A stretch of 50,894 nucleotides of DNA, from the NCBI GenBank assembly GCA_046485135.1, contig JAWOHN010000257.1:1-50894 (forward strand), in the 5' to 3' direction. The DNA comes from Anaerolineales bacterium (GTDB taxonomy: Bacteria; Chloroflexota; Anaerolineae; Anaerolineales; UBA4823). Below the pieces are notes generated by a model. That model saw only the letters and a list, made by a program, of their open reading frames with translations, did not search any database and was not told the origin of the DNA. The first letter of the stretch is position 1, and every line of letters starts with the position of its first letter. The position numbers and the translations under genes were made by a program. Below are positions 15,999-40,727 of the stretch, piece after piece.

Positions 15999-16535
15999 AT
16001 GATGAGCGACGAGAGTCTCCCCTCTGCCCGCCTGGTACGCGACCTGATGAAGGTCGGTGTGCCTACCTGCTCTCCGGATACTCCCGTCCCGGCATTGGCG
16101 CGCCTGTTTGTGGATTTGAACTACGAAGCAATAGTTGTATTGAGTCCGGAGGACGGGCATGCCATCGGCATTGTCAGCCAGCAAGAGCTGGTGGCGGCCT
16201 TCAGCCGGGAAGGCGGCCGAGGCTTGACGGCAGGAGATATCATGCGCGAAGAGGTCTCAAAAGCACCAGCGGATATCCCTCTGGAAGCAGCGGCTCAAAT
16301 TATGCTGGATACGGGTGTGCGAGTGCTGTTTCAAACGCATCATGCCGGTGGGATTGAATACCCAGCGGCAATGCTGACGTTCAACCACCTGTTGCGACAT
16401 CTGGCAGCACAAAGTGATGAAGAACTGAGCGATCTGGGCATCCAAGCCAGGCGAGAGGCGCCTTTAGAGGCGTATTTCAAACGGAGAAAAGAAGCCCGCG
16501 CCAGACATATTAAAACAGATCCGACAAAACCATAG
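15999..16535 (+). CDS. CBS-domain protein
   Basis: VRDLMKVGVPTCSPDTPV, GIVSQQEL, AGDIM..., LEAAAQIMLD form a tandem CBS pair; start uncertain (GTG 15936 or ATG 15999). Confidence 0.8.
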   Translation: MMSDESLPSARLVRDLMKVGVPTCSPDTPVPALARLFVDLNYEAIVVLSPEDGHAIGIVSQQELVAAFSREGGRGLTAGDIMREEVSKAPADIPLEAAAQIMLDTGVRVLFQTHHAGGIEYPAAMLTFNHLLRHLAAQSDEELSDLGIQARREAPLEAYFKRRKEARARHIKTDPTKP

Positions 16536-16555
16536 AAAGTTACAGGAGGGAACCC

Positions 16556-17530: not shown

Positions 17531-17583
17531 GCCAAACAGGCGAGCAATTCGTTTGCGAAAAGAAAATACTCGGAGAAGTTACT

Positions 17584-18900: not shown

Positions 18901-18919
18901 TTAGCAAAAAGGGTAGATT

Positions 18920-20902: not shown

Positions 20903-20977
20903 TAAGAGAGATTCCGGGTCAACGTTTTTGTCGATCGATGGGTCTCGAAGCATGACCAATAGAAAAGGACAGGAACT

Positions 20978-21901
20978 ATGTACATCATTGGCGAAAACAT
21001 CCATATCATCTCAGACAAGGTTAAAGCGGCGCTGTCTGCGAAAGACGCGAAATTCTTTCAAGAGCTGGCTGTAGCGCAGGTAGAGGCAGGTGCGCAGGCG
21101 CTTGATCTGAATATGGGACCGCGCAAGAAGGACTGGGAAGAGGTCTTTCCCTGGATGGTTGAGACGGTCGAGGCAGTGGTTGATGTGCCGTTGAGCTTTG
21201 ACAGCACCAACTTGATGGGAATTGAGGCCGGCTTAAAGAAGGTGACCAAGGCCCAGCCGATTATCAACTCAACCTCAGCAGAACCAGAGCGCTTGGAGAA
21301 GGTGCCCTTGCTGGCGAAGAAGTACAACACGCGCCTGATCGCCTTGACCATGGGAAAAGGCGGTATTCCAATCGGCGCGGACGAAAGGGTGAATATCGCT
21401 CTGGAATCCTTGATCCCGCGCATGCTGGAGATCGATTTCCCGATCAGCGACCTGATTATCGACCCACTGGTGTTGACTGTATCCGGCTGCCAGGAATATT
21501 GCCCGCACCTCCTTGAAACTATCCGCACGCTGCAGTATGCCTGGGATCCGCCACCATCCATTTCAGTGGGGTTATCCAACGTGTCCAACGCAGTACCCCA
21601 AGAAAACAGAGGGCTGATCAACCAGGTTTATGGGGCGATGCTGATGGGCGTCGGCCTGCAGATGATGATAGCCGATCCCCTGGACAAAGAGTTGACAGAG
21701 ATGATCCGCATCGTTGAAATGCGCGATGATTCTACTCCGGTGGGAGGGTTGTACATCAAGATCGCTGATAGGATTGCCGAGATGGAAGAACCATCGATTG
21801 AAGATGTCGACACCACTGATCCTGAGCAAGTGGCGATCTGGAAGACGGTGCAGATCTTACTGAATAAGGTTATCTACGCTGAGAGCTATCTGACGCAATA
21901 A
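20978..21901 (+). CDS. acsE: Methyl-THF:corrinoid methyltransferase (pterin-binding TIM barrel)
   Basis: MYIIGENI, LDLNMG, LSFDSTN, IINST, IIDPL, GLSNVS; position in the acs operon. Confidence 0.88.
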   Translation: MYIIGENIHIISDKVKAALSAKDAKFFQELAVAQVEAGAQALDLNMGPRKKDWEEVFPWMVETVEAVVDVPLSFDSTNLMGIEAGLKKVTKAQPIINSTSAEPERLEKVPLLAKKYNTRLIALTMGKGGIPIGADERVNIALESLIPRMLEIDFPISDLIIDPLVLTVSGCQEYCPHLLETIRTLQYAWDPPPSISVGLSNVSNAVPQENRGLINQVYGAMLMGVGLQMMIADPLDKELTEMIRIVEMRDDSTPVGGLYIKIADRIAEMEEPSIEDVDTTDPEQVAIWKTVQILLNKVIYAESYLTQ

Positions 21902-25100: not shown

Positions 25101-25264
25101 CTTATATCGATCCGACTCAATGCCAGGGTTGCGGGACATGCACAGGTGAATGTCCCGCCAATGCAATCCAATTGATCCATTACACAGATGAGCAGATGAT
25201 GCTGAGATCCATTGCAGGCCTGGGATCCTGGCAGGCTGAAACGATGATTGAGGCAATACAATGA
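22106..25264 (+). CDS. hdrA: HdrA-family flavo-iron-sulfur protein, double-core type (1052 aa)
   Basis: Two GGGxxG FAD motifs; QCIGSR..YCSSICC and YCSRVCC; CxC/ACS/NLRDQCS N-type domain; two 2x[4Fe-4S] ferredoxin modules. Confidence 0.92.
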   Translation: MQMIKPQTVRSKPAAALVVGGGIGGMRAALDLADAGLKVYLVEQTPCLGGRVAQLGFMFPQHDCVLCRGTQDHGYGCTRPSISPAYIQNNQHPNIEILTNTRIMDVQGEAGDFTAALVQEPRHVDPFRCINCDLCAQVCPVELPNAYQLGMTKRKAAYKVSARAAPDAYVIDRGPYCDDCGKCEQVCPTNAINLSEQPRLLTVDVGAIILALGFKVYPAGEHQELGAGRYPNVLESMQYERLASRSGPTEGSIYRPSDGKPPKSIAWLQCIGSREKDHPYCSSICCMYATKEALLATQRLGNDVSCSVFIMDERAFNKEYSAYFHKARETHGIQYHRSRVSEIKEDSATHDLILSYSDSDGKTHSERFEMVVLATGLQPPDSARQLAEMLSVELNEHGFCETDKFTPLQTTRPGVFVCGAFSSPKEIAETILDASGAAAEVMRLLNDRLHTYPYTRAYPFLSAEDYPDERDVSGDPPRVGVFSCTCGGTLTKDLDMSALTVRSLNWPGVEMAEVIDLACFPEELERMRQRIVEHGLNRIVVAACSNRTHDALFQKLMRSAGLNPYLLEVVNLRDQCSQVHQDVRLANRKAVELVRVAVGRVVVARPVYKEKHACFPAALVIGGGVAGMTAALAIADSGYDVNLVERSEILGGHLRNLYYVAEGYNPQRLLRDLVNRVRGHQRIFTHTRTVITGQSGHVGSFTTGLLTYHTDGSAEALSVEHGVTIMATGAQENKQHPLLEMPGVIVQSELEEKIIHHPEEIAALKDVVMMQCVRPEGVADYCSRVCCTNTMKNAIRLKLFNPSCRVTVLYKNIVTYGFREEYYTEARRHGVIFIRYTDQEPPQVKRVNGKLVVQVRDLSLDRLVTLPADLLTMSMSITPAEGSRELAELLRLPLSTEGFLEEAQLKLRPMDFMREGIFLAGMAHYPKFLEESISHALAAAGRALTLLSQESLYLGGVVAVVDAEKCVGCLTCTRTCPFEIPQVIEVEGRHGVGQLGGAAYIDPTQCQGCGTCTGECPANAIQLIHYTDEQMMLRSIAGLGSWQAETMIEAIQ

Positions 25265-25773
25265 CGCAGAAAGAAATCAGCCAGGAATTTGAACCTGAAA
25301 TCACTGCATTTTATTGCGTTTACTGTGGTTATATGGCAGCAGATACAGCCGGGGCGCTGCATATCCAATACCCGCCGAACGTGAAGTTTGTGCGAATGCC
25401 ATGTGGCGGCAAGACCGATATCCGTTACCTGCTGGAAGCCTTCGAGCAAGGGGCAGACGGAGTTTACTTGCTGGCCTGCCCGATCGGTAACTGTCACCAT
25501 GTGCGGGGGAACGAACGAGGCCAGGCGCGCATGGAACGGGCCAAAGCAATATTAGACGAAATCGGCCTGGGTGGAGAGCGCTTAAACATGTTTTTCATGT
25601 CCGGCAGCCAGGGACAGGCTTTTGCTAACGCAGCGAAAACGATGACGGAGCGCATCCGCAAGCTCGGTCCAAATCCGCTTAAGTTTGCAATTGAGAAAGT
25701 GCACGTTCCGATATCGATTGAAAGTGATCCAGAAGAAGAAAACGGTTTCCGAGGCAGGCGCCCAAAACGCTAA
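25261..25773 (+). CDS. mvhD: MvhD/FlpD [2Fe-2S] subunit, cysteine form
   Basis: FYCVYCGY, MPCGG, GADGVYLLACPIGNCHH (TGC at 25477), LGPNP; ATGA overlap with hdrA. Confidence 0.92.
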   Translation: MTQKEISQEFEPEITAFYCVYCGYMAADTAGALHIQYPPNVKFVRMPCGGKTDIRYLLEAFEQGADGVYLLACPIGNCHHVRGNERGQARMERAKAILDEIGLGGERLNMFFMSGSQGQAFANAAKTMTERIRKLGPNPLKFAIEKVHVPISIESDPEEENGFRGRRPKR

Positions 25774-25823: not shown

Positions 25824-28800
25824 ATGGCAAATTCTAAGGTATCTCCCTCCAAAGAACCTGCAATGCCGACCGGATCAGTAGTGGTCGTGGGTGGTGGAAT
25901 CGCGGGTATACAGGCCTCCCTAGACCTGGTGGAGCAAGGCTTTAAAGTTTATCTGGTTGAAACGCAAACTGCCATCGGTGGCAAGATGGCCCAGCTCGAT
26001 AAGACCTTCCCGACCAATGACTGCGCCATGTGCACGATCTCGCCGAAACTGGTTGAGACCGGGCGCCACCCCAATATCCACGTAATGACGGATACTGAGG
26101 TTTTAGATGTAAAGGGACAGGCTGGAAATTTCAGCGTTACCTTGCAGCATAAGGCCCGCTATATCGATACCTCGAAATGTGTGGGCTGCGGGGAATGCAC
26201 GGCTGTCTGTCCGGTGGTTGTGCCTGATAAGTTTAATGAGGGGCTAGACCAGCGCAGAGCAATTTTCAAGTTATACCCACAGGCTGTCCCAAATGCGTAT
26301 GCGATTGAGAAGCAAGGCATTTCTCCTTGCCGAGACGCCTGCCCGGCGGGTCAGCGTGCCCAAGGGTACATCGCATTAATCCGGGAGGGGCGCTGGGATG
26401 ATGCGCTGCGGGTAATCAAAATGGACAATCCCTTCCCGGGCATCTGCGGACGTATCTGCAACCACCGCTGTGAGACAGCCTGCAATCGCGGTCATGTAGA
26501 TGAGCCGATCAATATCCGGGCTTTGAAGCGATTTGTGACCGATAAGGTATATGCTGAACCACGAACACAAATTGAAGCGGTCCAAATTAAATATCCAGAC
26601 CGGCGGGTAGCGATCATCGGAGCTGGTCCCTGTGGACTGACGGCAGCGCGAGACCTGGTGGAAGCCGGCTATCCGGTTACCGTGGTCGAGGCCATGCCGG
26701 TGGCGGGCGGTATGCTGCGTTTGGGTGTGCCTGAGTACCGCTTGCCAGCAGAGATCATCGAGAGAGAAGTGCAAGACATCCTGGATCTGGGCGTAGAGCT
26801 GCGCTTGAACCACCAGGTGGAAAACCTGGATGATCTGTTTGACGAAGGCTTTGAAGCGGTATTGATTTCAGTGGGCGCGCATGAAGGCGTTCGCCTGCCG
26901 ATCCCCGGCGCAAACCTGGAAGGTGTATTGATCAACACGCACTTCTTGCGAGACGTGCGCCTGGGGAAATATGCGCAAGTCGATATCTCTGGCAACGGAG
27001 ATGCTGCCCCAGAACTGGGTGAACATGTGCTGGTCCTGGGGGGCGGAAATGTGGCGATCGACGTGGCACGCACGGCAGTGCGCCTGGGGCGGAAGGTTTC
27101 GATGGCCTTCCTTGAGTCAAGGGAGACGATGCCCTCTCACGATTGGGAGGTGCAGGCGGCGTTGGATGAAGGTATCCGTCTGTACCCAAGCCGGACCTTT
27201 GAGCGGATTGTGGCGGACGGAGATGGCAAAGCGGCTGGTGTTGAGTGCATGAATGCGCGCAATTTCAGCTTTGATGAAACAGGCCGGCTGAACGTAGATA
27301 AAGAACCGAGCTCTAACCACGTGGTCCCATGCGATACGGTGATCTTCTCGGTCGGGCAGCGGGCGGGTCTGGCCTTTATCCCTGACGATGCCGGGGTGGG
27401 TATGACGAACAAGCGGACCATCGCCATCAACCCCAACACCTTTGCAGCCACCCGTCCAGGTGTGTTTGCAGCCGGTGATAGTGTATCAGGCACAGCTTTT
27501 GTCATTGAGGCGGTAGCCAGTGGGCACACGGCGGCCGAGTCGATCATCCGCTACTTACAGGGAGACCAACTGGAGCCGCAGCCGAAGCCAGATCTGCCGG
27601 TGGTGCACCTGTCGCAGGACGAGCTGGCGGAACGCATTGCCCTTGGCGAGATTCACCGCCAACCACGCGTGCTTTTGCCGCAATTGCCGGTGGCTCAACG
27701 CCTGGATAATTTTGCAGAGGTGGAGGGCGGTTATGATGATGAGTCTGCACAAAGAGAGGCGGCGCGCTGCCTGGCTTGTGGCGTCTGTTCGGAGTGCATG
27801 AGCTGTACTTTTGTCTGCGGGGTCAATGCCATCGACCATAATATGGTCGTCAGAGAGGAGGTCGTTGAAGCCGGGGCGATTATCCTGGCGCCTGGATATC
27901 AGATATACAAGGCTGAGCTGTCAGAAGAGTACGGATTTGGGCGCTATCCAAATGTGATCACCTCTTTGCAATACGAGCGAATCCTTTCGGCCAGCGGACC
28001 GACCCGAGGCCACCTCAAGCGACCTTCCGATAGCAAAGCGCCCAAGCGCATTGCCTTCTTGCAATGCGTAGGCAGCCGCGACCAGAGCCACGATTACTGT
28101 TCGTCCGTGTGTTGTATGTACGCGGCCAAAGAAGCGATTATGACCATCGAGCATGCCCGGGCAGAAGCACGGTTGAGAGGTGAGGAAGCGGATGTATCTT
28201 GCGAGGTCTTTTTCATGGACACGCGCGCCTACAGCAAAGGCTATGAAGAATATTACCGGCGGGCTGAGGGTAAATACGGAGTCAAGTACACCCGAGCGCG
28301 CATCAGCCAATTGCGCGAAGACCCGAAAACTGGGAACCTAATTGTGCGTTATGCTGCTCCTTATGAGGGCAAGCCAAAACCAATTGAGCGTGAATTCGAC
28401 CTGGTGGTCCTGTCTGTTGGGATGGAGATTTCGGAATCGGTGCGCCAACTTGGGCGGACGCTAGGTGTCGAGCTGGACGATTACGGCTTTTGCCATACGA
28501 CGCTATTTGACCCATTGCAAACCAGCCGCCCTGGCATCTTTGCTGCCGGACCTTTCCGTGAGCCGAAGGATATCCCCGAATCGGTCACCGAGGCCAGCGG
28601 GGCGGCAGCGGCTGCTGCACAGCTCCTGTCTGCTTCCCGCTTTACATTGACCAGCGTACCAGAATACCCACCGATGCGCGAAGTGAAGGAAGAACCGCCC
28701 CGGACGGGAGTCTTCGTTTGCCATTGCGGTAGCAATATCGGCGGATATTTGGATGTGCCAGACGTGGCGAAATATGCCGGCTGTCTGCCTGGCGTGGTCC

Positions 28801-30416
28801 ACGCGGAAGATAATTTGTATACCTGCTCGCAGAATACCGTTGAACATATCATTGAGCAAGTGCGCGAGCTTGGGTTGAACCGGGTGGTGGTGGCTTCCTG
28901 TACTCCTTTGACGCATGAGGGCATGTTCCAGGATGCTTTACGACAGGCCGGACTCAACCCGTACTTATTCGAGATGGCCAATATTCGCAACCAGTGTTCC
29001 TGGATTCATTCAAAAGACTGGGATGGAGCTACAGAAAAGGCCAAAGCGCTGGTGCGCATGGCGGTTGGCCGAGTGGGCGAGCTGGAGCAGCTGTACACCG
29101 AAGAGGTGCAGGTGGAACATTCTGCACTGGTGATCGGTGGTGGACCGGCGGGTATGACAGTCGCACTAAGCCTGGCAGATCAGGGATTTCCGGTGCATTT
29201 GGTGGAGCGTAGCGCGAAATTAGGCGGCAATTTACGAAACCTGCGTTATTTCGCTGACCAGGAGCGCACGCCGTTGGATTTCCTGAACGAGATCGAGGCG
29301 AATGTCCTGAAGCACCCCCTGATCACTACCTACCTGGATGCCGAAGTCAAGGAAACCGGCGGCTTCAAAGGTAGCTTTTCCTCCAAAGTGCGTGTAGGCA
29401 CCCAGACGATTCGCGTCCAACATGGCGTGACCATCCTGGCAACCGGCGGAGTCGAATATAAGGGTCAGGAATACGGATACGGGCGTGACTCGCGCATTTT
29501 GACCCAGCTGGAATTTGAGCAGCGCCTGGCAGAGAACGGGGCAGAACTTCCTGGCAAGGTGGTCATGATTCAATGTGTTGGTCCAGGCGAAAAATCTTGC
29601 AGCCGGATATGCTGCACAACTGCCTTGAAAAATGCGCTCAAGCTCAAAGATCTCAACCCTGCTGCGGATGTGACGATTCTATACCGGGATATCCGTACCT
29701 ACGGGTTCAAAGAACGGCTGTACAGTCAAGCCCGCCAGGCAGGGATCCGCTTTGTCCATTTTGAATTCGAGCATAAACCGAAAGTGCGGGTAAGCCCACA
29801 GGACAGCACCCGGCCCGGAAGGCTTTCAGTGAAAATCACAGAGCCTCTCCTGGAGCGCGAGATCGAACTGGGCGCTGACCTGATCGTATTGAGTACGCCA
29901 ATGGTTCCTGCAGAAGGTATCCAGGATCTGGCTACGGCGCTCAAGTTGTCGGTGGGTACGGACGGCTTCTTTATGGAGGCGCATGTTAAGCTACGCCCGG
30001 TCGATTTCACCTCAGACGGGGTCTTTATGGCTGGCGCAGCCCACTTCCCGAAATTCCTGGATGAGACGCTTGCCCAGGCGCAGGCGGCTGCTTCGCGAGC
30101 CGCTATCACGCTGTCGAAACGAACCCTGTTAACCAATGCGAGTGTTGCTGTGGTCGATGCGGAAAAATGCGTTGGATGCCTGACATGCGTGCGGATTTGC
30201 CCTTATGACGTACCAAAGGTTTCGAATGATTACACCGGCGCCGGTGGAATCCTGGGCGCGGCTTATATTGAACCGGCTGTCTGCCATGGATGTGGAAGCT
30301 GTGCGGCTGAATGCCCAGCTCAGGCCATTCAATTGATGCACTATAAAGACGCTCAAATCCTGGTCAAACTGGATGCCTTATTCAATCAAACCCCAGAAAG
30401 GGTCGTGGTGAAGTGA
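25824..30416 (+). CDS. hdrA: HdrL-type HdrA with inserted GltD-like NAD(P)H:FAD oxidoreductase module (1530 aa)
   Basis: QLDKTFPTNDCAMC; insert with PCRDACP, CGRICNHRCETAC, GAGPCG, GGGNVAID, GVFAAGD, EAARCLAC; two HdrA cores; C-terminal ferredoxin. Confidence 0.92.
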   Translation: MANSKVSPSKEPAMPTGSVVVVGGGIAGIQASLDLVEQGFKVYLVETQTAIGGKMAQLDKTFPTNDCAMCTISPKLVETGRHPNIHVMTDTEVLDVKGQAGNFSVTLQHKARYIDTSKCVGCGECTAVCPVVVPDKFNEGLDQRRAIFKLYPQAVPNAYAIEKQGISPCRDACPAGQRAQGYIALIREGRWDDALRVIKMDNPFPGICGRICNHRCETACNRGHVDEPINIRALKRFVTDKVYAEPRTQIEAVQIKYPDRRVAIIGAGPCGLTAARDLVEAGYPVTVVEAMPVAGGMLRLGVPEYRLPAEIIEREVQDILDLGVELRLNHQVENLDDLFDEGFEAVLISVGAHEGVRLPIPGANLEGVLINTHFLRDVRLGKYAQVDISGNGDAAPELGEHVLVLGGGNVAIDVARTAVRLGRKVSMAFLESRETMPSHDWEVQAALDEGIRLYPSRTFERIVADGDGKAAGVECMNARNFSFDETGRLNVDKEPSSNHVVPCDTVIFSVGQRAGLAFIPDDAGVGMTNKRTIAINPNTFAATRPGVFAAGDSVSGTAFVIEAVASGHTAAESIIRYLQGDQLEPQPKPDLPVVHLSQDELAERIALGEIHRQPRVLLPQLPVAQRLDNFAEVEGGYDDESAQREAARCLACGVCSECMSCTFVCGVNAIDHNMVVREEVVEAGAIILAPGYQIYKAELSEEYGFGRYPNVITSLQYERILSASGPTRGHLKRPSDSKAPKRIAFLQCVGSRDQSHDYCSSVCCMYAAKEAIMTIEHARAEARLRGEEADVSCEVFFMDTRAYSKGYEEYYRRAEGKYGVKYTRARISQLREDPKTGNLIVRYAAPYEGKPKPIEREFDLVVLSVGMEISESVRQLGRTLGVELDDYGFCHTTLFDPLQTSRPGIFAAGPFREPKDIPESVTEASGAAAAAAQLLSASRFTLTSVPEYPPMREVKEEPPRTGVFVCHCGSNIGGYLDVPDVAKYAGCLPGVVHAEDNLYTCSQNTVEHIIEQVRELGLNRVVVASCTPLTHEGMFQDALRQAGLNPYLFEMANIRNQCSWIHSKDWDGATEKAKALVRMAVGRVGELEQLYTEEVQVEHSALVIGGGPAGMTVALSLADQGFPVHLVERSAKLGGNLRNLRYFADQERTPLDFLNEIEANVLKHPLITTYLDAEVKETGGFKGSFSSKVRVGTQTIRVQHGVTILATGGVEYKGQEYGYGRDSRILTQLEFEQRLAENGAELPGKVVMIQCVGPGEKSCSRICCTTALKNALKLKDLNPAADVTILYRDIRTYGFKERLYSQARQAGIRFVHFEFEHKPKVRVSPQDSTRPGRLSVKITEPLLEREIELGADLIVLSTPMVPAEGIQDLATALKLSVGTDGFFMEAHVKLRPVDFTSDGVFMAGAAHFPKFLDETLAQAQAAASRAAITLSKRTLLTNASVAVVDAEKCVGCLTCVRICPYDVPKVSNDYTGAGGILGAAYIEPAVCHGCGSCAAECPAQAIQLMHYKDAQILVKLDALFNQTPERVVVK

Positions 30417-30883
30417 TGTCGAGAGAATTTACACCGGAAATCGTCGCCTTTTGCTGTCATTATTGCGCTTACGCGGCCGCGGATCTGGCTGGCGCGATGA
30501 GGTTGGAATATCCCCCCTCGATCAAGATCATCGAGCTGCCCTGCTCTGGAAAACTGGATGTGCTGTACGTACTGCGGGCATTCGAGGACGGTGCGGACGG
30601 GGTCATGGTGGCAGGTTGACTGGAGGGCGAATGCCATTACCTGGAAGGTAATCTCAACGCCCGGCGGCGAATTGAATACGCTCAAAAGATACTGGAAGAA
30701 ATCGGACTGGAAGGCAGGCGAATCCAGATGATCAATGTATCTGCTGCCATGGGAGGGCAGTTTGCCTGGTCAGCGGCTGAGCTGACCGAAGAAATCAAGC
30801 GGCTGGGACCTAATCCGTTGAAGCCAGAATCGAGAGAAGATTGGGTGCAAACAGGGGTTTTAGGTGAGGAGGAAGCCAAATGA
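30416..30883 (+). CDS. mvhD: MvhD [2Fe-2S] subunit, probable selenoprotein (Sec68, UGA 30617-30619), 155 aa
   Basis: GADGVMVAG-U-LEGECHYLEGN continues in frame through GLEGRRIQM and LGPNPL to TGA 30881-30883; SECIS-like hairpin after the UGA; overlaps both neighbours. Confidence 0.9.
30625..30662 (+). promoter_or_regulatory. Bacterial SECIS-like hairpin
   Basis: Upper stem ATTACCT-GGA-AGGTAAT (30636-30652); lower stem GGGCG/CGCCC; G-led apical loop 24 nt after the UGA. Confidence 0.8.
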
Positions 30884-31296
30884 CAAAGGAAGCGTATATC
30901 CTGGTTGTGGATGATGACCCAGACATCCTGGAAAATATTGTCACCATCCTAGAAACCCAACCTTACCGGCTGGCTACAGCGCGGGATGGCAAACAATGTA
31001 TGAAAATGTTGGAACAAGAAACGCCTGACCTGTTGATCTTGGATCTGCTGATGCCACGCATGGATGGGTGGGGCGTGATTCGCGAGATGCGCAGTGAGCG
31101 GAAATTCGATAAGGTTCCTATTATGATCCTCTCCACGGTGGTAGAGGACGCCAGCCGGCGGCGGTATGAACTGGAGACAGGCATGTCGATGGATGTTCAA
31201 GAGTATATCCAGAAGCCAGCCAGACCAGCGGAACTATTACGGCTGGTGGTTAAGCTATTAAATATCAAGGAGGCGGCTGACTTTGAAATTGGTTAG
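30880..31296 (+). CDS. Single-domain response regulator (receiver only)
   Basis: ILVVDDD, PDLLILDLLMPRMDG, IMILST, YIQKP; no output domain. Confidence 0.92.
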   Translation: MTKEAYILVVDDDPDILENIVTILETQPYRLATARDGKQCMKMLEQETPDLLILDLLMPRMDGWGVIREMRSERKFDKVPIMILSTVVEDASRRRYELETGMSMDVQEYIQKPARPAELLRLVVKLLNIKEAADFEIG

Positions 31297-31307
31297 CCGG
31301 TAAGCTG

Positions 31308-32546
31308 ATGGATAACTCCGGGTTTGACAGCGTATTTGATGGAATGGACCCAAGGGTCCTTATCACTGTTGCGCGCTTGCGAAATTCTGAGATCTTTGCG
31401 GAATTGGATGAGGAAGACCTGGTCTCCATTGCTGGATTTTGCCGAGAAGAGAACTACCAGGACGGGCATATTGTCCTTGTTGAAGGACAACCCGCCAACT
31501 CAATGTTCATTATCGAACGTGGCAAGGTTGCGTTGGAGAAAAAAGTGCAAATTGGGCGGCATACGACACCGCGCAATGCAACGATAGATTATGTGGGACC
31601 GGGTCAAATCGCTGGATTCTCGTCGCTGACCCCACCATACTTGTACGCCACATCAGCGGTGTGCACCGAGCCAACCCGAGTTCTGTACATTGATGCGGAT
31701 CAGTTGCGAGAGTATCTACGCGAGCAGCCAAAGGCTGGCTATCCCATCATGTTGAAAATGGCCCGGCTGATCGGGTTTCGCTACCGGGGCTCAATCGATA
31801 CATTGACGTATTTCTTGTCAATCGTCTCTCATGAATTACGCTCCCCCCTGGCGGCGATCGAGAACTATCTGCAAACCATGCTGGGTGGCTTTGCCGGGGA
31901 GCTGACTCAGAAACAAGATAAGATGATCAAGCGGTGCGTGGTGAGAGTGACGGATCTGCGGGCATTGATCAGTGATGTAGTAGATCTGGCCCGTATGCGT
32001 CCCGAGCAAATCCAGGCGGATTTTGAATGGTTTGACCCCGGGGATACGGGCACAGAATCGATCGAGGATGTGCGGCTGGCGGCAGCAGAAAAGAATATCC
32101 GCATCCGGGTGGCGCCACCGGCGAAGTTTGAACCGATTGTGGGGGGGCACCGGCGGCTGAGGCAGGTGTTTACAAATATTTTGAACAATGCCATCAAGTT
32201 TTCACCGCCCGATAGTACGATCATTTTTCGAGCCTGGTACGAAGCGGATCAGCTGATTTTTGAAGTGGAAGATGAAGGACCGGGTATCCCTACAGAGGAG
32301 ATGGATGAGGTCTTTAAGGATTTCTTCCGAGCCAGTAATGTTGGCGATACACCGGGTATGGGTCTGGGCCTGTCCATCGCCCATAATATTATCGAAGCCC
32401 ACAATGGTGAAATCGTGGTGCGTAATGTCGGCGATGAAAGCGGTAAGACTGGCGCCTGCGTACGGATTGTGATCCCGCGCAACTTGATGACGCCGGAGAT
32501 GCGTAAACGAGAGTACGCCAAAGACCTGCAACAGATAGAGCAGTAA
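31308..32546 (+). CDS. Cytoplasmic sensor histidine kinase with N-terminal cNMP-binding/Crp-type domain
   Basis: IFAEL...EGQPANSMFIIERGKV...GPGQIAG; SHELRSPL H-box, NILNNAIKF, DEGPGI, GMGLGLSI; no TM helix. Confidence 0.9.
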   Translation: MDNSGFDSVFDGMDPRVLITVARLRNSEIFAELDEEDLVSIAGFCREENYQDGHIVLVEGQPANSMFIIERGKVALEKKVQIGRHTTPRNATIDYVGPGQIAGFSSLTPPYLYATSAVCTEPTRVLYIDADQLREYLREQPKAGYPIMLKMARLIGFRYRGSIDTLTYFLSIVSHELRSPLAAIENYLQTMLGGFAGELTQKQDKMIKRCVVRVTDLRALISDVVDLARMRPEQIQADFEWFDPGDTGTESIEDVRLAAAEKNIRIRVAPPAKFEPIVGGHRRLRQVFTNILNNAIKFSPPDSTIIFRAWYEADQLIFEVEDEGPGIPTEEMDEVFKDFFRASNVGDTPGMGLGLSIAHNIIEAHNGEIVVRNVGDESGKTGACVRIVIPRNLMTPEMRKREYAKDLQQIEQ

Positions 32547-32549
32547 GCT

Positions 32550-35500
32550 GTGACTACCATGAATGTGAGAAGTGCACCTCCAATTTATGAAGCTGAGCCA
32601 CCTGTAGGGGCCGTCCTGGTAGTTGGCGGTGGAATTGCGGGCATGCAGGCTGCGCTGGATCTGGCAGACCAGGGTTTCAAAGTGTACCTGGTCGAATCAG
32701 ACACGGCGATTGGCGGGCATATGGCGCAGCTCGATAAGACCTTTCCGACCAACGATTGCGCCATGTGCAATATCAGTCCAAAACTGGTGGATACGGGACG
32801 ACATCCGGATATTGATATCCTGACCGGAAGTGAAGTCCTGTCTATTAACGGAGAGGTGGGCAATTTCACCGCCCGGGTATTGAGGAAACCGCGCTACGTC
32901 GATGTGAATAAGTGCATTGGCTGCGGGGAATGTGTTCCGGTCTGTCCAGTGGAAATATTTGATCCGTATGAAGAGGGCTTGAAAACCCGCAAAGCCATTT
33001 ACCGGCGCTATGCTCAGGCGGTTCCGGCAGCCTATGCCATCGAAAAGCTGGGAACTGCCCCTTGCCGGAGTGGCTGCCCGGTAGGTCAGCGCGCCCAAGG
33101 ATATATTGCTTTGATTGCCAAAGGACGATATCGCGATGCCTTACGGGTGATCAAAGAAGACAATCCTTTTCCGAGCGTTTGTGGGCGGACCTGCCACCAT
33201 CCTTGCGAAGGGAAATGTACCCGAGCGCTGGTCGACGAGGCAGTCAGCATTATGTCGCTGAAACGCTTTGTGGTAGATTATGCCCTGGCTTACGGGAGAG
33301 AGAAGGTACAACCCGTTCCACGCACACATCCAGAATGGGTGGCAGTGGTAGGATCTGGCCCGGCTGGTTTGACAGCCGCCCATGATCTGGTCAAAATGGG
33401 CTATGGGGTGACAGTCTATGAAGCTCTCAGTGTCCCAGGTGGCCTGATGCGGGTGGGGATACCGGCCCACCGCCTGCCGAAAGGTGAATTACAACAAGAC
33501 ATCGATGACATCCTGGCCCTTGGCGTTGTCCTAAAAACCAATTCTCCGATAGAGGATCCGGTCAAATTGCTGGAGGAGGGCTATAACGCGGTCTGCCTGG
33601 CGACGGGTATTTCTTCAGCCAATCTCTCCCTGGGGATCGAAGGGGAGCAGGCGGAAGGAGTTTTGTTGGCGCCTGAGTTTCTACGCAAGATCAATTTGGG
33701 CCAGCCCATCCAGATTGGAGATCGGGTGGCAGTGGTAGGTGGAGGCATCACGGCGCTAGATGCGGCGGCTGTCGTGCGCAGGCTGGGTGCGGAAGTCTAC
33801 GTGGTATTAGATCGCCCGCGTGGAGAGCTGCCGGCTTACCAAACTGAAATTGAGGCTGTCGAAGCTGAGGGGATTCATATTTACGATCATATGACCGCGG
33901 CCCGCATCCTGTCAGAAAATGGAGCAGTAGTAGGTGTGGAGCTGGCCAAAGCGGACCAGGGGTATGTTACCGACGCGTCCGGACGGCGGCGGCCAAAGCT
34001 GGTACCCGGCAGCGAGATGCAACTGGAAGTGGATACCGTCATTGGCACTGTGGAACAGTTGTCGGACCTGACTTATCTGGCGCCAAAATATCAAGACCTG
34101 GCGGCGGATAAAAACACACTAGCCAGCAGCGTCCCCGGGCTGTTCGTGGTGGGTGGGCGGAAGACCGGAGCCAGCTATGTCATTGAAGCGGTTGCGCTGG
34201 GGCATAAAGTGGCTCGATCCATTCAGCGCTACCTGCAAGGTCTGCCTTTGTTGCAACCTGAAATACCCGCTCCGCCGATCGCTAAGCTGACCCGGCAAGA
34301 GGTGGCTGAGCGCGTACAAGCCGGGCATATTCAGCTGGCGCCCAGGCAAAAACCTGCTTTGTTGTCGATGGGCGAGCGGGCTACCAGCTTTCGAGAGGTG
34401 GTGCTTGGCTTTACCGAGCATCAGGCCAGGGCAGAAGCAGAGCGCTGCTTGCAGTGCGGCGTTTGCTCAGAATGTATGGAATGCTCTTATGCCTGTGGTG
34501 TGGATGCGATCGATCATGATAGCGTTGCGCGTGAAGAGGAAATCCGGATTGGGGCGGTCATCCTGGCGCCGGGTTACCAGGCATATTCTGCGGAGCATTC
34601 TGAAGAATACGGATTGGGTCGATATCCAAACGTATTGACCGCTCTGCAATTTGAGCGGTTGCTGTCCGCTTCAGGACCCACCTTGGGGCATGTGTTGCGA
34701 CCCTCAGACCAGCGGGAGCCAAGGCGAATTGCCTTCTTGCAATGTGTTGGCTCGCGAGATCGCACGCATGATTACTGTTCTTCTGTTTGCTGTATGTACG
34801 CTACGAAGGAAGCGGTGATCGCCAAAGAGCATTGTCCGGAATTGGATGTGCATATCTTTATGATGGATATGCGCGCGTTTTCAAAGGGTTACCTGGGCTA
34901 TTTTGAACAAGCCAGGCAACGCTACGGGGTCCATTACCACCATAGCCGGATCAGTCAAATCCGCGAAGATGCGCATAGCCACGATTTGCTGTTGCGCTTC
35001 AGCACTGTGGAGGAGACTTCTCAGGGTAAGGACTCTCCGGCAACGGCCCACCTGGAGCGGTTTGACATGGTGGTTCTCTCGGTTGGGATGGAGATTTCAG
35101 AGCCAGTGCGTGAGCTGGGCCAGCGCCTTGGGATTGAACTGGATAACTATGGTTTCTGCCAAACCGTCCAATTTGATCCGTTGGAGACAAACCGGCCTGG
35201 TATCTATGCGGTAGGGCCATTTCGGGAGCCAAAGGATATCCCCGAATCTGTCATCGAAGCGAGCGGGGCTGCGGCGGCGGCCGCTGGGCGCCTTTACCCG
35301 GCTCGGTTCAACCTGAGCAAACGCCCGGAAAAGCCTTTGGAACGAGATGTCAGCGATGAAGAGCCACGAATTGGAGTCTTTGTCTGCTCTTGTGGCTCGA
35401 ATATTGGCGGCTTCCTGGACGTTCCAGAAGTAGCCAGTTACGCGGAAAAGCTGCCGAATGTATGCCATAGTGAATGGAACCTTTACACCTGTGCGCAAGA

Positions 35501-37082
35501 TAGCATCGAGCGAATCACTGAACAGGTGCGGGAGCGTGGACTTAATCGGGTGGTGGTAGCCAGTTGCAGCCCTCTGACTCACAAACCGCTATTTCAAGAC
35601 AGTATTCGAGCGGCTGGTTTGAACCCATATTTATTTGAAATGGCAAATATCCGCAACCAATGCTCCTGGGTACACTCCCTGGATCGAGAAGCAGCCGGCG
35701 AGAAAGCCAAAGAGTTGGTGCGTATGGCGGTGGCAAGAGCAGCCTTATTAGAGGCTCAAAAGATGGTTGCTGTGGAAGTAAATCAGGCGGCTCTGGTGGT
35801 GGGAGGCGGCGCTGCCGGTATGACGGCGGCTCTGTCCCTGGCGGAGCAAGGCTTCCCGGTCCATTTGGTAGAAAAGCAGGCTGAGTTGGGCGGGAATTTG
35901 CGGCATCTTTACAAACAAGCCAGTGGAAAAGATCCACAGGAATACTTGTGCAGGCTGTTGCAAGAGGTGCATGCAAATCCAAATATCAGCGTGCATTTGG
36001 AGAGTCAGGTCGTTGCCAGCTCGGGATTTATGGGCAATTTCAGCAGCACCATCCTTGGCCCGCAAGGCAGGCAGCAAGTGTCTCATGGTGCGACGATATT
36101 GGCTACCGGCGGTGGAGAAGACCGGGAAAGATTAGGCGGTTTGCACAAAGATGAGCGTGTCCTGACGCAGCAAGAATTTGAGGCCTGGCTGTTTGCTTGG
36201 CAGCAGTCTGGGGAGATTGGCAAATCCAAGCGTCCTGCCAGGGTGGTGGTGCACCTGTGTGCAGGACAGGAAGTGGATTACTGTAGCCGGGTTTGTTGCT
36301 ACCAGGCGCTGAAAAATGTCCTTTGGTTGAAAGAGTTGTCTCCAGAAACCGAAGTACTGGTGCTTTACAAAGATATCCGAGCCTATGGTTTCAAAGAGAA
36401 GTTATATAAAGAAGCCCGCGCACAGAAGGTGCTGTTCTTGAGATATGACCATTCTCGCCCCCCACAAGTTGAGCACGTTCTGAGCGGAAAGGAACTCGAA
36501 CCAGCTCTGGCGATACGCGCCTGGGAAAACGCGCTGGGGAAGTGGATCGAGTGGGAAGCGGATCTATACGTGATGAGCTTGCCTGTTATTCCTAACCCGG
36601 AAACAAAAAGGACAGCGTCGATCTTTAAGGTGCCCAGAGATGCGGATGGTTTCTTTGTTGAGGCGCACGTCAAGCTAAGACCGGTGGATTTCGCCTCTGA
36701 GGGCATTTTTATGGCAGGTATGGCCCATTTCCCGAAGCTTTTGGACGAATCGATCATCCAGGCTAAAGCGGCTGCGGCGCGGGCAGCCAGGGTTCTGAGC
36801 CGGGAAATTCGCACGGTGGGGGGGCGGGTGGCAGTGGTCGACCCGGAACTGTGTACCGGTTGCCTGACCTGCGTCCGAATTTGTCCGTTTGGTGTGCCAC
36901 AGATCGACACCAATATTGCTGGAGCGGGAGGGATTATCGGGGCAGCCACGATTGAAGCCGCAGTGTGCCAGGGGTGTGGCAGCTGTGCGGCTGAATGCCC
37001 GGCTCGGGCGATCCAATTGAAGCACTATACGGATACCCAAATGAGCGCATTGGTGACGGCATTGATAGGGGAGGCGGTATGA
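32550..37082 (+). CDS. hdrA: Second HdrL-type HdrA with GltD-like insert (1510 aa)
   Basis: Same architecture as 25824-30416: DCAMC, PCRSGCP, CGRTCHHPCEGKC, GSGPAG, QCVGSR..YCSSVCC, C-terminal ferredoxin. Confidence 0.92.
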   Translation: MTTMNVRSAPPIYEAEPPVGAVLVVGGGIAGMQAALDLADQGFKVYLVESDTAIGGHMAQLDKTFPTNDCAMCNISPKLVDTGRHPDIDILTGSEVLSINGEVGNFTARVLRKPRYVDVNKCIGCGECVPVCPVEIFDPYEEGLKTRKAIYRRYAQAVPAAYAIEKLGTAPCRSGCPVGQRAQGYIALIAKGRYRDALRVIKEDNPFPSVCGRTCHHPCEGKCTRALVDEAVSIMSLKRFVVDYALAYGREKVQPVPRTHPEWVAVVGSGPAGLTAAHDLVKMGYGVTVYEALSVPGGLMRVGIPAHRLPKGELQQDIDDILALGVVLKTNSPIEDPVKLLEEGYNAVCLATGISSANLSLGIEGEQAEGVLLAPEFLRKINLGQPIQIGDRVAVVGGGITALDAAAVVRRLGAEVYVVLDRPRGELPAYQTEIEAVEAEGIHIYDHMTAARILSENGAVVGVELAKADQGYVTDASGRRRPKLVPGSEMQLEVDTVIGTVEQLSDLTYLAPKYQDLAADKNTLASSVPGLFVVGGRKTGASYVIEAVALGHKVARSIQRYLQGLPLLQPEIPAPPIAKLTRQEVAERVQAGHIQLAPRQKPALLSMGERATSFREVVLGFTEHQARAEAERCLQCGVCSECMECSYACGVDAIDHDSVAREEEIRIGAVILAPGYQAYSAEHSEEYGLGRYPNVLTALQFERLLSASGPTLGHVLRPSDQREPRRIAFLQCVGSRDRTHDYCSSVCCMYATKEAVIAKEHCPELDVHIFMMDMRAFSKGYLGYFEQARQRYGVHYHHSRISQIREDAHSHDLLLRFSTVEETSQGKDSPATAHLERFDMVVLSVGMEISEPVRELGQRLGIELDNYGFCQTVQFDPLETNRPGIYAVGPFREPKDIPESVIEASGAAAAAAGRLYPARFNLSKRPEKPLERDVSDEEPRIGVFVCSCGSNIGGFLDVPEVASYAEKLPNVCHSEWNLYTCAQDSIERITEQVRERGLNRVVVASCSPLTHKPLFQDSIRAAGLNPYLFEMANIRNQCSWVHSLDREAAGEKAKELVRMAVARAALLEAQKMVAVEVNQAALVVGGGAAGMTAALSLAEQGFPVHLVEKQAELGGNLRHLYKQASGKDPQEYLCRLLQEVHANPNISVHLESQVVASSGFMGNFSSTILGPQGRQQVSHGATILATGGGEDRERLGGLHKDERVLTQQEFEAWLFAWQQSGEIGKSKRPARVVVHLCAGQEVDYCSRVCCYQALKNVLWLKELSPETEVLVLYKDIRAYGFKEKLYKEARAQKVLFLRYDHSRPPQVEHVLSGKELEPALAIRAWENALGKWIEWEADLYVMSLPVIPNPETKRTASIFKVPRDADGFFVEAHVKLRPVDFASEGIFMAGMAHFPKLLDESIIQAKAAAARAARVLSREIRTVGGRVAVVDPELCTGCLTCVRICPFGVPQIDTNIAGAGGIIGAATIEAAVCQGCGSCAAECPARAIQLKHYTDTQMSALVTALIGEAV

Positions 37083-37516
37083 ACAGCGAAAAGTTCCAAA
37101 TCCTGGCTTACTGCTGCGAACATTGTGCATACGCCGCTGCCGACCAGGCAGGAGGCATGAGGTTACAATACCCAGCGCAAATCAAGATCGTTATGCTGCC
37201 CTGCACGGGAAAGCTGGATGTGTTGATGGTTTTGGAGGCGGTGGAAGCTGGTATTGACGGCGTGCTGGTGGCAGGTTGACTGCCAGGTGACTGCCATTAC
37301 CTGGAAGGTAATGCCAACGCCAGAAGACGGGTAGATCATTTGAGGTGCATTCTGAGCGATATTGGCCTGGAACCAGAGCGATTGCAAATGGTGAATATGT
37401 CCTCTGCGATGGGCGCCCAGTTTGCCCAGATGAGCACGGAGATTACAAATCAGATTATACAGTTAGGCCCTAACCCTTTGAGGTCAGGAAGAGCAGGTAA
37501 GATAAGCGATGTTTAA
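37079..37516 (+). CDS. mvhD: MvhD [2Fe-2S] subunit, probable selenoprotein (Sec67, UGA 37277-37279), 145 aa
   Basis: MNSEKFQILAYCCEHCAY...LPCTG...GVLVAG-U-LPGDCHYLEGN...GLEPERL...LGPNPL to TAA 37514-37516; ATGA overlap with hdrA; GGAGG RBS. Confidence 0.9.
37295..37313 (+). promoter_or_regulatory. Bacterial SECIS-like hairpin
   Basis: CATTACCT-GGA-AGGTAATG; same core sequence and same spacing from the UGA as at 30636. Confidence 0.8.
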
Positions 37517-37575: not shown

Positions 37576-38259
37576 ATGATCGTTGCGGAACAAAAATCCC
37601 TGAATGAAATCAAGCAGCTGGTCGGCGCCGCCAAGAATGTGTTGGTGGTGGGCTGCGGGACATGCGTTACAGTCTGTTTTGCCGGCGGCTCGCGCGAGGC
37701 TGCTATCCTGGCCTCATCGTTGCGCATGGCCTCAAAGCTGGAAGGAGGTCCCAAAGCCGTGACTGACGTGACGGTGCAGCGACAGTGCGAGTGGGAATAT
37801 CTGGACGGCATTGCCGAACAAGTGAAGGAAGCTGAGCTGGTGGTGTCCTTGGGCTGCGGCATTGGTGTTCAAGCAATTGCCGAACATTTCCCGGAGACCT
37901 GGGTCGTGCCGGGGTTGAATACCAGATTCTTAGGTCTGCCCACCGAGCAGGGTATCTGGATGGAGCGCTGCGCGGCTTGCGGGGATTGCGTGTTGGGGTT
38001 GACGGGCGGGATTTGCCCCATTGCCCGTTGTTCGAAGTCCCTGTTGAACGGACCCTGTGGTGGATCGGTAGATGGACATTGCGAGATCGATCCAGAAGTT
38101 CCTTGTGCGTGGCAGCTTATTTACGATCGACTGAACAGCATGGGTAGGCTGGAGTTTATGACCGAAATTCAGCCAGCGAAGAACTGGCGGACAAGCAGGG
38201 ATGGTGGTCCGCGGCGAATAGTTCGCAATGATTTGAGACTGGCAGCAGAGGAGGAGTAG
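37576..38259 (+). CDS. metV: Methylene-THF reductase iron-sulfur subunit MetV
   Basis: GCGTCVTVCFAGG, RQCE, GCGIGVQ, CAACGDC, CPIARCSKSLLNGPCGG, C..CAW; AAGGAG RBS before ATG 37576. Confidence 0.92.
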   Translation: MIVAEQKSLNEIKQLVGAAKNVLVVGCGTCVTVCFAGGSREAAILASSLRMASKLEGGPKAVTDVTVQRQCEWEYLDGIAEQVKEAELVVSLGCGIGVQAIAEHFPETWVVPGLNTRFLGLPTEQGIWMERCAACGDCVLGLTGGICPIARCSKSLLNGPCGGSVDGHCEIDPEVPCAWQLIYDRLNSMGRLEFMTEIQPAKNWRTSRDGGPRRIVRNDLRLAAEEE

Positions 38260-38262: not shown

Positions 38263-39297
38263 ATGGCAGCTAGTGTATCTGGAAATGGTTACCTATCGGG
38301 TTCAAACCTGGAACGAGTATTGCGAGCGGGGCATTTCGCGGTAACAGGAGAGCTTGGGCCGCCGCAGAACGCAGATGGGGAAGTGATTCGCAAGAAAGCT
38401 GCCTTATTGAAAGGCTATGTGGATGCGGTGAACCTCACCGACAACCAGACAGCCATTGTCCGCATGTCGAGCATCGGCGCAGGTACGATCGTGGTGCAAG
38501 AGGGATTGGAGCCGGTAATCCAGATGACTTGCCGCGATCGCAACCGGTTGGCGATGCAAAGCGACTTATTGGGCGCGTATGCACTGGGTATGCGGAACGT
38601 CTTGTGCCTGACGGGCGATCACCAAACATTTGGCAACCATCCTAACTCAAAGAACGTCTTTGATATGGATTCGATACAGTTGGTGCAAATGCTGGTCAAT
38701 ATGCGCGAGGAGAAGGTGTTCCAAAATGGAGAGGCCTTCAAAGGACCTGAGCCGCGTTTCTTCGTTGGCGCAGCTGAGTCACCCTTCGCTCACCCGGTGG
38801 AATTTCGGCCTCTGCGCCTGGCAAAAAAGGTTAAGGCTGGGGCGAACTTCATCCAGACCCAGCTGGTTTATGATATCAAGGCCTTCGAAGCGTTCATGGA
38901 GAAGGTGCGGGCATTGGGAATTCATAAAGAGACCTATATCCTGGCAGGCGTCGGACCATTGAAAAGCCCTGGAATGGCCAAGTATATGATCGAAAACGTG
39001 CCGGGCATTCTCGTTCCGGATGATATGGTCAAAAGGATGACCGCAGCTGGAGCTCCCTGGGCTGGGAAAAGCAAAGACGAGCTGACCAAAGAAGATAAAA
39101 AAGCCCGTTCAAGCGCCTGGCAGCAGGAGGGCATTCAAATTTGTATCGAGCTGATCCAGCAGCTCCAAAAAATCGAAGGTGTAGCAGGTGTTCATATTAT
39201 GGCGATTGAGTGGGAAGAAGCGGTGAAGCCACTGGTAGAAGGGGCGGGATTGTACCCGCGACCCATCGTGGCGAATCCGGTGGAGGAGGTAGCTTAA
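38263..39297 (+). CDS. metF: Methylene-THF reductase flavoprotein subunit MetF
   Basis: TGELGPP, VNLTDNQ, QMTCRDRNRLAMQSDLLGA, LTGDH, KKVKAGANFIQTQ, GVHIM. Confidence 0.95.
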   Translation: MAASVSGNGYLSGSNLERVLRAGHFAVTGELGPPQNADGEVIRKKAALLKGYVDAVNLTDNQTAIVRMSSIGAGTIVVQEGLEPVIQMTCRDRNRLAMQSDLLGAYALGMRNVLCLTGDHQTFGNHPNSKNVFDMDSIQLVQMLVNMREEKVFQNGEAFKGPEPRFFVGAAESPFAHPVEFRPLRLAKKVKAGANFIQTQLVYDIKAFEAFMEKVRALGIHKETYILAGVGPLKSPGMAKYMIENVPGILVPDDMVKRMTAAGAPWAGKSKDELTKEDKKARSSAWQQEGIQICIELIQQLQKIEGVAGVHIMAIEWEEAVKPLVEGAGLYPRPIVANPVEEVA

Positions 39298-40727
39298 TGA
39301 CTAAAGGACAGGAATCTTCTGGAGAACCTTTAACGATCAACCCGGAACTGGCCCAGCGAATCCAGGATGAGATTGGGCAGAACGTTTACCTGTGCTACCA
39401 GTGCATCAAATGCACCAATGGTTGCCCGGTGAGCGAATACTTCGATTGGCAGCCGAACCAGATCATGAGAGCGGTGCAGCTGGGACAGGAAGACATCGCA
39501 TTGCACTCCCAAACTGCATGGCTGTGCGCCAGCTGCCAGACTTGCACGACTCGTTGCCCGCAGGACCTGGATATTACCGCCATCATGGAGTTCTTGACCC
39601 GGGAGGCGCTCGAGCGCGGCATAAAACCAAGCGTGCCAGAGGTGGATGTCTTTAATAAAGCCTTTATGCGGGAGGTACGCATCTGGGGGCGCTCCTATGA
39701 ATTGGGCTTGATGATGGATATGAAGTTGCGCAATATCCGCAGGCACAGCTTGATGGATGACATGGACCTGGGCGTGCGGGTGATTGCAAAAAATAAATTG
39801 CCCTTCCTGCCCAAATATGTGCGGGCTCCTAAAAACGTCAAGCCGGTTCCCGGCGCTGCCAGCGCGGTAGCCTATTATCCAGGCTGCTCGTTACATTCTA
39901 CAGCCGGTGAATATAACGTTTCTACCAAAGCAGTATGTGAGGCGCTGGGGATGCAACTGGTAGAGCCAGATGGGTGGATTTGCTGCGGTAGCTCTGCCGC
40001 TCACCGCTCAGATCCAGAAGAGGCCCTGCGGCTGCCGATGGAAAACCTGCGCCTGATCGAACAGGGCGGTTTTAGCGAGGTAACCATGCCTTGTGCGGCC
40101 TGCTTCAACCGTCACAAGGCTGCCCAATACGAGATCCGCCATCATAAGGACCGCCGGGATGCACTGGACAAGGCCATGGATTATAAATACCAGGACTTGG
40201 TGCAGGTGAACTCTGTAATCGATACAATCTACCAGCGAATTGGCCCGGAGGAGCTCTCAGCGAAAGTGCAGCGCAAGTTGGATGGTTTAAGAGTCGTATG
40301 TTACTATGGCTGTTTGCTGACCCGGCCGCCGCAGGTGACTGAAGCGCAGCACCCGGAAAACCCGACTGAAATGGATGCGCTTATGGAAGCCCTGGGCGCT
40401 CAGGTCTCGGACTGGTCTTACAAGACCACCTGCTGCGGGGCAGCGCATTCGTTGACGCGGCCGGATATTGTATTGGACCTGAGCAGTAACCTGATCGAAC
40501 ATGCCCGGGAGGCGGGCGCTGATGCGATTGTTGTGGCTTGTCCGCTCTGCCACACCAACTTAGATGCCAGGCAGTTCCAAATGAAACTTGAGCAGCCCAT
40601 GCCAGTGTTGTATTTGACGCAGTTGATGTCCATCGCCTTGGGATTGCCAGAGAAATCAGCTGCACTGCACAAGAACCTGGTCGATCCACGACCGATGTTG
40701 AGGAGCAAAGGTTTTCTGGCAGGTTAG
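39297..40727 (+). CDS. Fused HdrC-HdrB (two [4Fe-4S] clusters plus two CCG domains)
   Basis: CYQCIKCTNGCP, CASCQTCTTRCP; YYPGC...CCG...CAAC and YYGC...CCG...CPLC; TAATG overlap with metF. Confidence 0.9.
   Translation: MTKGQESSGEPLTINPELAQRIQDEIGQNVYLCYQCIKCTNGCPVSEYFDWQPNQIMRAVQLGQEDIALHSQTAWLCASCQTCTTRCPQDLDITAIMEFLTREALERGIKPSVPEVDVFNKAFMREVRIWGRSYELGLMMDMKLRNIRRHSLMDDMDLGVRVIAKNKLPFLPKYVRAPKNVKPVPGAASAVAYYPGCSLHSTAGEYNVSTKAVCEALGMQLVEPDGWICCGSSAAHRSDPEEALRLPMENLRLIEQGGFSEVTMPCAACFNRHKAAQYEIRHHKDRRDALDKAMDYKYQDLVQVNSVIDTIYQRIGPEELSAKVQRKLDGLRVVCYYGCLLTRPPQVTEAQHPENPTEMDALMEALGAQVSDWSYKTTCCGAAHSLTRPDIVLDLSSNLIEHAREAGADAIVVACPLCHTNLDARQFQMKLEQPMPVLYLTQLMSIALGLPEKSAALHKNLVDPRPMLRSKGFLAG

Follow-up and report, generated by a model that had tools for sequence, protein, structure and literature searches.

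The window analysed here, a stretch of 50,894 nucleotides from an Anaerolineales bacterium of the phylum Chloroflexota (contig JAWOHN010000257.1 of assembly GCA_046485135.1), hosts an mvhD gene interrupted in frame by a UGA codon. The gene is most probably intact, codon 67 being recoded as selenocysteine (Sec), and would encode the predicted [2Fe-2S] relay subunit of an Hdr-linked methylene-tetrahydrofolate (methylene-THF) reductase, serving the giant HdrA encoded next to it. An earlier note on this DNA had proposed a hidden selenoprotein MvhD upstream of metV-metF, and the proposal is sustained by the pairing of TGA with Cys codons in relatives, an invariant hairpin, the Sec machinery of the genome, and purifying selection past the UGA. 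On these sequence comparisons region 37079-37516 is very likely a real selenoprotein gene, and a well supported one.

The frame is as the note had described. It opens at ATG 37079, which overlaps the stop codon of the upstream hdrL gene (ATGA, 37079-37082), meets TGA 37277-37279 between the motifs GVLVAG and LPGDCHY, and remains open until TAA 37514-37516. This TGA is the only one in frame, and falls at a conserved column occupied by Cys67 in homologs. When TGA is read as U, the 145-residue product spans the Pfam FlpD domain PF02662 in full (positions 1-123 of 123, E 2e-45), and scores 154 bits against a curated cut-off of 22.3. The AlphaFold model, made from a 25-row alignment with Sec entered as Cys, has a predicted local distance difference test score (pLDDT) of 90.5, and superposes on the solved MvhD/ElpC chains 7bkb_F, 5odc_D, 5odh_D and 8rvu_F with template modelling (TM) scores of 0.85-0.89 over 127-134 columns. 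Residue numbering is identical to that of solved chains 9sw2_D and 5odc_D, and the Cys columns 13, 16, 42, 67 and 72 are invariant in the 25 rows. According to the model, a product terminated at the TGA would measure 66 residues, and lack C72 and the helices 77-94 and 112-129. Sec-FrhD, MvhD and VhuD belong to the same Pfam family, and the column is U in Moorella thermoacetica FrhD (PMC1794560, supplement 4) and X in PDB chain 9sfi_K. Contigs from all four public sequencing runs compared, one of which was flagged as a possible source of the window DNA, span the UGA codon with no differing letter; given this agreement, the UGA is not an assembly error. A look-up of RNA data listed no data set that contains this DNA.

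Related loci were compared in a set made by the best 80 of 101 confirmed loci, and thus biased toward close relatives. The best mvhD of each locus has TGA at the column in 75 cases, TGT or TGC in the other 5, and no other codon was found; the UGA is therefore not a chance occurrence. A metV gene lies at most 1.3 kb after mvhD in 76 loci (71 TGA, 5 Cys); of the remaining four, three end near a contig edge and one has hdrA after mvhD. Adding the two copies of the window to 76 from the loci gives 78 UGA copies, and in all of them codons 8-135 are free of any second stop. The earlier note had argued that a stop at the same codon in two divergent paralogs made random mutation or sequencing error very unlikely. 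Chance and error are indeed refuted, by the 75 TGA loci; the two copies do not count as independent events, the paralogs being related, and the UGA common to both is most simply explained as inherited and kept. Records of the nearest relatives are nearly all titled Chloroflexota, mostly Anaerolineae. Loci L048, L054, L058 and L068, titled Acidobacteriota, Desulfobacteraceae, Acidimicrobiaceae and Steroidobacteraceae, carry a Chloroflexota-type mvhD, possibly as a result of transfer or of mis-binning.

The ratio of nonsynonymous to synonymous substitution rates (dN/dS, omega) had been suggested in the earlier note as a check, and stays low past the UGA. In the UGA set it measures 0.065 for codons 8-66, 0.148 for codons 68-135, and 0.127 for codons 81-135, in which the hairpin codons are left out; in a control set of UGA-free Cys paralogs the same three ranges give 0.037, 0.058 and 0.066. 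Both sets thus vary more in the C-terminal half, the UGA set by a slightly larger margin, but neither comes close to neutrality. Uncorrected pairwise pN/pS values (0.23 before, 0.38-0.40 after the UGA) are inflated by saturation, and were not relied on.

A hairpin of the bacterial Sec insertion sequence (SECIS) type follows the UGA (Table 1). Published criteria (PMC13188914) specify a loop of 3-9 bases with G in the first two places, located 16-37 bases after the UGA, a stem of 4-16 pairs, and at most -7.5 kcal/mol. The window hairpin falls within these limits, at -8.2 kcal/mol for 37292-37316; the bare hairpin measures -7.1. An identical stem is found 15 bases past the UGA in 78/78 UGA copies, and the loop G is invariant. 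One codon only is used for His73, Tyr74, Gly77 and Asn78 (78/78 each) and for Leu75 (76/76), against a background codon identity of 0.36-0.54, and the excess is limited to codons 64-83. The register is fully paired, at all six positions, in none of 31 Cys paralogs, a further one being left out because of a contig edge. In a second set, 20 TGA and 20 stop-free top matches hand-picked from a survey of 301 genomes of the class (189 with a match; three TGA picks duplicate earlier loci), the hairpin occurs in 20/20 TGA but 1/20 Cys-coded orthologs. The hairpin has a probability of 0.82-0.88 in 50- and 60-base segments of the window copy, and is favoured at 60 bases in 76 of the 78 UGA copies. A search of window positions 30000-38500 against Rfam found no match with an E value of 1 or lower. 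A loose SECIS screen of the genome returned 250 candidates, mostly noise, eight of which were compared with Pfam; hence a single hairpin is weak evidence. In 19 of the 20 Cys-coded orthologs (loci L101-L120) Tyr74 is replaced by Phe or Leu, and residues 75-76 are variable, which suggests that in UGA copies the protein sequence is constrained by the hairpin.

The genome assembly, 82% complete, includes selA above the profile cut-off, selD with its own in-frame TGA, a tRNA-Sec on contig C137, and a fragment resembling the N-terminus of selB. The sole tRNA with a UCA anticodon found by ARAGORN is called tRNA-SeC, in an incomplete set of 33 tRNAs. TGA is also an ordinary stop, as it ends 12 of the 33 plus-strand window open reading frames (ORFs) checked; the first UGA-type mvhD itself terminates with a TGA overlapping the next start, and TGA thus acts as both Sec codon and stop in one gene. 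selA was found in 5/5 and 35/40 TGA-bearing genomes.

Some observations weigh against Sec recoding and the role proposed for the product. The folding energy of the hairpin does not differ significantly from that of shuffled sequences (z -0.5 to -1.1). In 42- and 84-base segments of the window copy a competing fold wins, leaving the hairpin a probability of 0.01-0.02, and the stem, invariant across UGA copies, offers no covariation. The selB piece is confined to the N-terminus, covering profile positions 2-118; it lies where contig C258 ends, and scores below the family cut-off. selA was not found in 5/40 TGA-bearing genomes, which are 64-91% complete. Omega rises past the UGA 2.0-2.3-fold in the UGA set, as compared to 1.6-1.8-fold in the Cys control. 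The set of cluster ligands discussed below was deduced by elimination, not from coordinates, and the partnership of MvhD with HdrL and MetVF is drawn from gene order and from other organisms.

The window genes are ordered as CO dehydrogenase/acetyl-CoA synthase (CODH/ACS) block, hdrA, mvhD (Cys), hdrL, mvhD (UGA), two-component pair, hdrL, mvhD (UGA), metV, metF, and fused hdrCB, the names hdrL and hdrCB being assigned from domains and published layouts. Hence hdrA, mvhD, metV, metF, hdrC and hdrB all reside in one cluster. By analogy with other organisms and from gene order, the giant HdrA encoded immediately upstream (32550..37082) is the likely partner of the second UGA-type MvhD. The genome hosts four mvhD genes in total, two of the UGA type, both in the window and 62% identical over 109 residues, and two of the Cys type, one at 25261-25773 and one on contig C48. 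No response regulator was found after the metV-linked mvhD in the 80 loci. Two UGA-type copies occur in locus L071 as well, the first of them grouping as sister to the first copy of the window (support 99).

According to the earlier note, the methylene-THF reductase complex of this organism depends on selenium. The claim is plausible for the HdrL-MvhD input arm, because both HdrL modules have UGA-type MvhD; it does not extend to the enzyme type. In the absence of selenium, translation of the UGA copy would end after 66 residues, with a useless product, and therefore the HdrL arm of this organism likely needs selenium. That the organism is unable to reduce methylene-THF without selenium is a stronger statement, and a doubtful one, although it has points in favour. 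The two giant-HdrA modules of the cluster both have a UGA-type MvhD, whereas the Cys paralog, 44% identical, forms a type of its own that goes with the shorter HdrA; the UGA is retained in 71 of the 76 closest relatives linked to metV. In addition, the sole full match to the formate dehydrogenase alpha subunit FdhA (contig C228:12085-14157) is free of in-frame stops, despite the Sec machinery of the genome, and MvhD may be the only Sec site of the pathway in the assembly. Against strict dependence, contigs C98 and C220 each carry another metV-like/metF pair, C262 and C129 have metF matches as well, two mvhD genes of the genome are Cys-type, and the assembly is 82% complete; MetVF of Sporomusa ovata was purified without HdrBCA-MvhD, and needed ferredoxin for product formation (PMC9430772).

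Cys-coded orthologs precede metV in 5/76 cases in the first set and 18/20 in the second, 23 in total. selA is present in the genomes that host Cys-coded orthologs (5/5 and 21/21), and the idea that these arise where the Sec machinery is lost was consequently rejected. Rejected was also a coupling of the Sec-to-Cys change with Asp71-to-Asn, seen in 3/5 copies of the first set, as none of 20 further Cys orthologs has Asn. In the tree, every one of the five Cys copies of the first set is sister to UGA-type copies (support 51-98), and the stem is intact or has one G-U pair in four of them, which points to recent, repeated Sec-to-Cys change. Since cysteine serves in many relatives, selenium is most likely a means of tuning the cluster, not a requirement of the chemistry. 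A broader picture, in which the methylene-THF reductase of the Wood-Ljungdahl pathway is fed across Anaerolineae via a selenium-ligated [2Fe-2S] cluster, with selenium supply gating the step by way of MvhD instead of formate dehydrogenase, is rather unlikely to hold as a whole.

In the proposed mechanism, SelB would bind the hairpin and deliver the Sec-tRNA. MvhD is inferred, by analogy, to bind a [2Fe-2S] cluster; its ligands would be C13, C42, U67 and C72, with a direct bond between selenium and iron. NAD(P)H would be oxidised at the HdrA insert, and electrons would pass via the MvhD cluster to the HdrA flavin and on to MetVF, along a route possibly bifurcating and possibly reversed. This electron model is transferred, on the basis of gene content, from the Moorella enzyme, whose giant HdrA has been proposed to oxidise NADH, the electrons bifurcating between methylene-THF and an unknown acceptor (PMC9430772). 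A Glu/Lys signature of bifurcation in HdrA is described in the same paper. In methanogens the MvhD cluster relays electrons to the HdrA flavin, according to the structure literature cited; further background is found in PMC5861303, PMC13518236, PMC6019823 and PMC12350162. The codon had been called a ligand codon in the earlier note. By elimination it is a probable one, as five Cys are invariant and Cys16 is described as an extra cysteine (PMC13580544); no paper listing the MvhD cluster ligands was found in the literature search.

A real Sec67 that is not an iron ligand, and acts in selenol/disulfide exchange toward a Cys pair of HdrA as proposed for BamF Sec19, is improbable. Relays of this kind, by thiol or selenol groups between MvhD cluster and flavin, have been proposed in three papers, and residues 68 and 71, adjoining position 67, lie at the HdrA interface. 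In those papers, however, it is the residue of the Cys16 column that acts as relay; in the window gene and in every locus checked this residue is Cys, and four ligands are needed where just five cysteines are invariant. Decoding of the UGA as Trp, Gly or Cys under an altered code, or dually as Cys and Sec, is still less probable: 25 orthologs tolerate Cys at this position, but TGA is an ordinary stop in the genome, the only UCA-anticodon tRNA found in the incomplete set is tRNA-SeC, and presence of the hairpin tracks the UGA. A true stop, in a pseudogene, a truncated product or a sequencing error, is close to impossible. TGA does terminate other window ORFs, and omega about doubles past the UGA, but the Cys control has a similar rise, the other runs carry TGA, the 66-residue product would lack C72 and both distal helices while VhuD helix N76-L93 mediates binding in a solved complex, and the reading is already refuted by conservation of the codon across loci with no further stop.

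Recoding of the UGA as Sec fits what is known of the family. FrhD/MvhD is a standard family of bacterial selenoproteins (Zhang et al. 2006, PMC1794560; 2026 review, PMC13188914), third most numerous in the 2006 table with 19 proteins; the string 'Chloroflex' is absent from the text of the review. In archaea and Deltaproteobacteria, according to the 2006 text, Sec-FrhD is encoded in hydrogenase operons of the order hdrA-frhD-frhG-frhA, whereas the window gene precedes metV-metF; in contrast to the Sec-FrhD family, the window MvhD has one Sec only, and the CxxC at 13-16 is made by Cys. The same six gene kinds form the MetFV-HdrABC-MvhD (Hdr-type, or fourth-type) reductase of M. thermoacetica and S. 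ovata, and a giant HdrA of about 1500 residues with an oxidoreductase insert is common to the window and Moorella (1487 aa, PMC9430772). The window differs in that hdrC and hdrB are fused and follow metF, and that three HdrA-MvhD modules are present. Moorella Sec-FrhD may belong to another cluster, because the Sec-HdrA reported in 2006 begins unlike the giant type (PMC1794560). Evidence for the S. ovata complex comes from pull-downs only, and selenium is unmentioned in the main text of that paper (PMC9430772). Marine Anaerolineae (Sewell et al. 2017, PMC5736913) share with the window the phylum, the hdrABC-mvhD-metVF cluster and the fused hdrCB; in the passages covered (12 of 13 places) their FlpD is described with four conserved cysteines, and Sec is mentioned for formate dehydrogenases only. 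Desulfobacterium autotrophicum HRM2 has four Sec-MvhD genes, with Sec-MvhD beside HdrL (PMC2702500). Like the window protein, HRM2 Sec-MvhD and BamF of the class II benzoyl-CoA reductase (bioRxiv 10.64898/2026.04.10.717634) are bacterial adaptors on HdrA/HdrL without hydrogenase, but both systems have other output enzymes, Sec19 of BamF lies at a non-ligand column, and two HRM2 HdrL proteins are themselves selenoproteins, while the window hdrL genes have no in-frame stop. The literature search, in which most subscription papers were outside the scope, found no statement of Sec in a reductase-linked MvhD. Sec-MvhD family and cluster are both already known; the window gene is a new example, and nothing in it will surprise a selenoprotein specialist.

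Gene calling with table 11 cuts this mvhD at 66 residues, and in many Chloroflexota genomes the cluster may for this reason seem to lack MvhD or to have lost it. A likely need for selenium in carbon fixation or acetate turnover of uncultured sediment Anaerolineae bears on cultivation media. Nature provides both Sec and Cys versions of a probable [2Fe-2S] ligand, in orthologs that share one operon setting, and these make a ready series for analysing electron transfer from the MvhD cluster to the HdrA flavin, called unresolved in recent structure papers.

Table 1. Features of the window bearing on the UGA-containing mvhD gene
Feature	Position	Strand	Basis
CODH/ACS block, Wood-Ljungdahl pathway	11608..21901	+	profile matches
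Shorter HdrA, 1052 aa, paired with Cys-type mvhD	22106..25264	+	domains
mvhD paralog of the Cys type (44% identical), with TGC at the column and without the hairpin	25261..25773	+	profile, alignment
First giant HdrA, 1530 aa, 52% identical to second	25824..30416	+	domains
First UGA-type mvhD, TGA 30617-30619, same hairpin	30416..30883	+	profile, hairpin check
Response regulator and histidine kinase with cyclic nucleotide (cNMP) domain, between the two HdrL-MvhD(Sec) modules	30880..32546	+	profile matches
Giant HdrA (HdrL type, 1510 aa), pyridine-nucleotide oxidoreductase insert, no in-frame stop	32550..37082	+	domains
GGAGG ribosome-binding site	37070..37074	+	sequence
mvhD (FlpD/FrhD family), 145 aa with TGA as Sec; invariant C13, C16, C42, U67, C72	37079..37516	+	ORF, Pfam, alignment, model
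In-frame UGA, codon 67, inferred Sec	37277..37279	+	sequence, codons of relatives, other runs
Bacterial SECIS-type hairpin; 7-bp stem and 5-base loop (or 8 pairs around GGA); loop 22-23 bases past UGA	37295..37313	+	conservation, published model
metV (DUF5981); longest ORF from 37531	37576..38259	+	profile
metF (MTHFR)	38263..39297	+	profile
Fused hdrC-hdrB, Fer4 and two CCG domains; longest ORF from 39210	39297..40727	+	domains

A gene is interposed between mvhD and metV in 13 of the 76 loci. Related proteins of 187-197 aa, resembling GNAT acetyltransferases by eye, are encoded at this junction in L012, L013, L025, L037, L063, L079 and L080; in the window a GNAT gene is found at 45139-45717. 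Helical proteins of 118-124 aa, carried by inserts of lower G+C content, mark the same junction in L023 (6410-6784), L033 (6473-6844) and L051 (6456-6812), and a 160-aa protein with one hydrophobic stretch resides there in L015, L016 and L027 (about 6430-7030).

Elsewhere in the genome, likely selenoproteins, with Pfam domains that span the TGA, are encoded at C183:3225-3893(-), C222:2161-2625(+) and C241:7974-8675(+) (loci L093-L095); the types are a thioredoxin/glutaredoxin-domain protein (UxxC), an AhpC/TSA-family protein, and a deiodinase-like protein. A DUF1573/Ig-like protein at C207:1603-2094(-) (L096) has a Cys-UGA pair, located within its domain match and followed by a strong hairpin, and is possibly a less familiar selenoprotein. 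The metV-like/metF pair of contig C220 (L090:3267-9994) lies in a corrinoid methyltransferase cluster with a B12-binding protein, RACo, DUF1638 and a pterin-binding protein, possibly a module for the utilisation of methyl groups.

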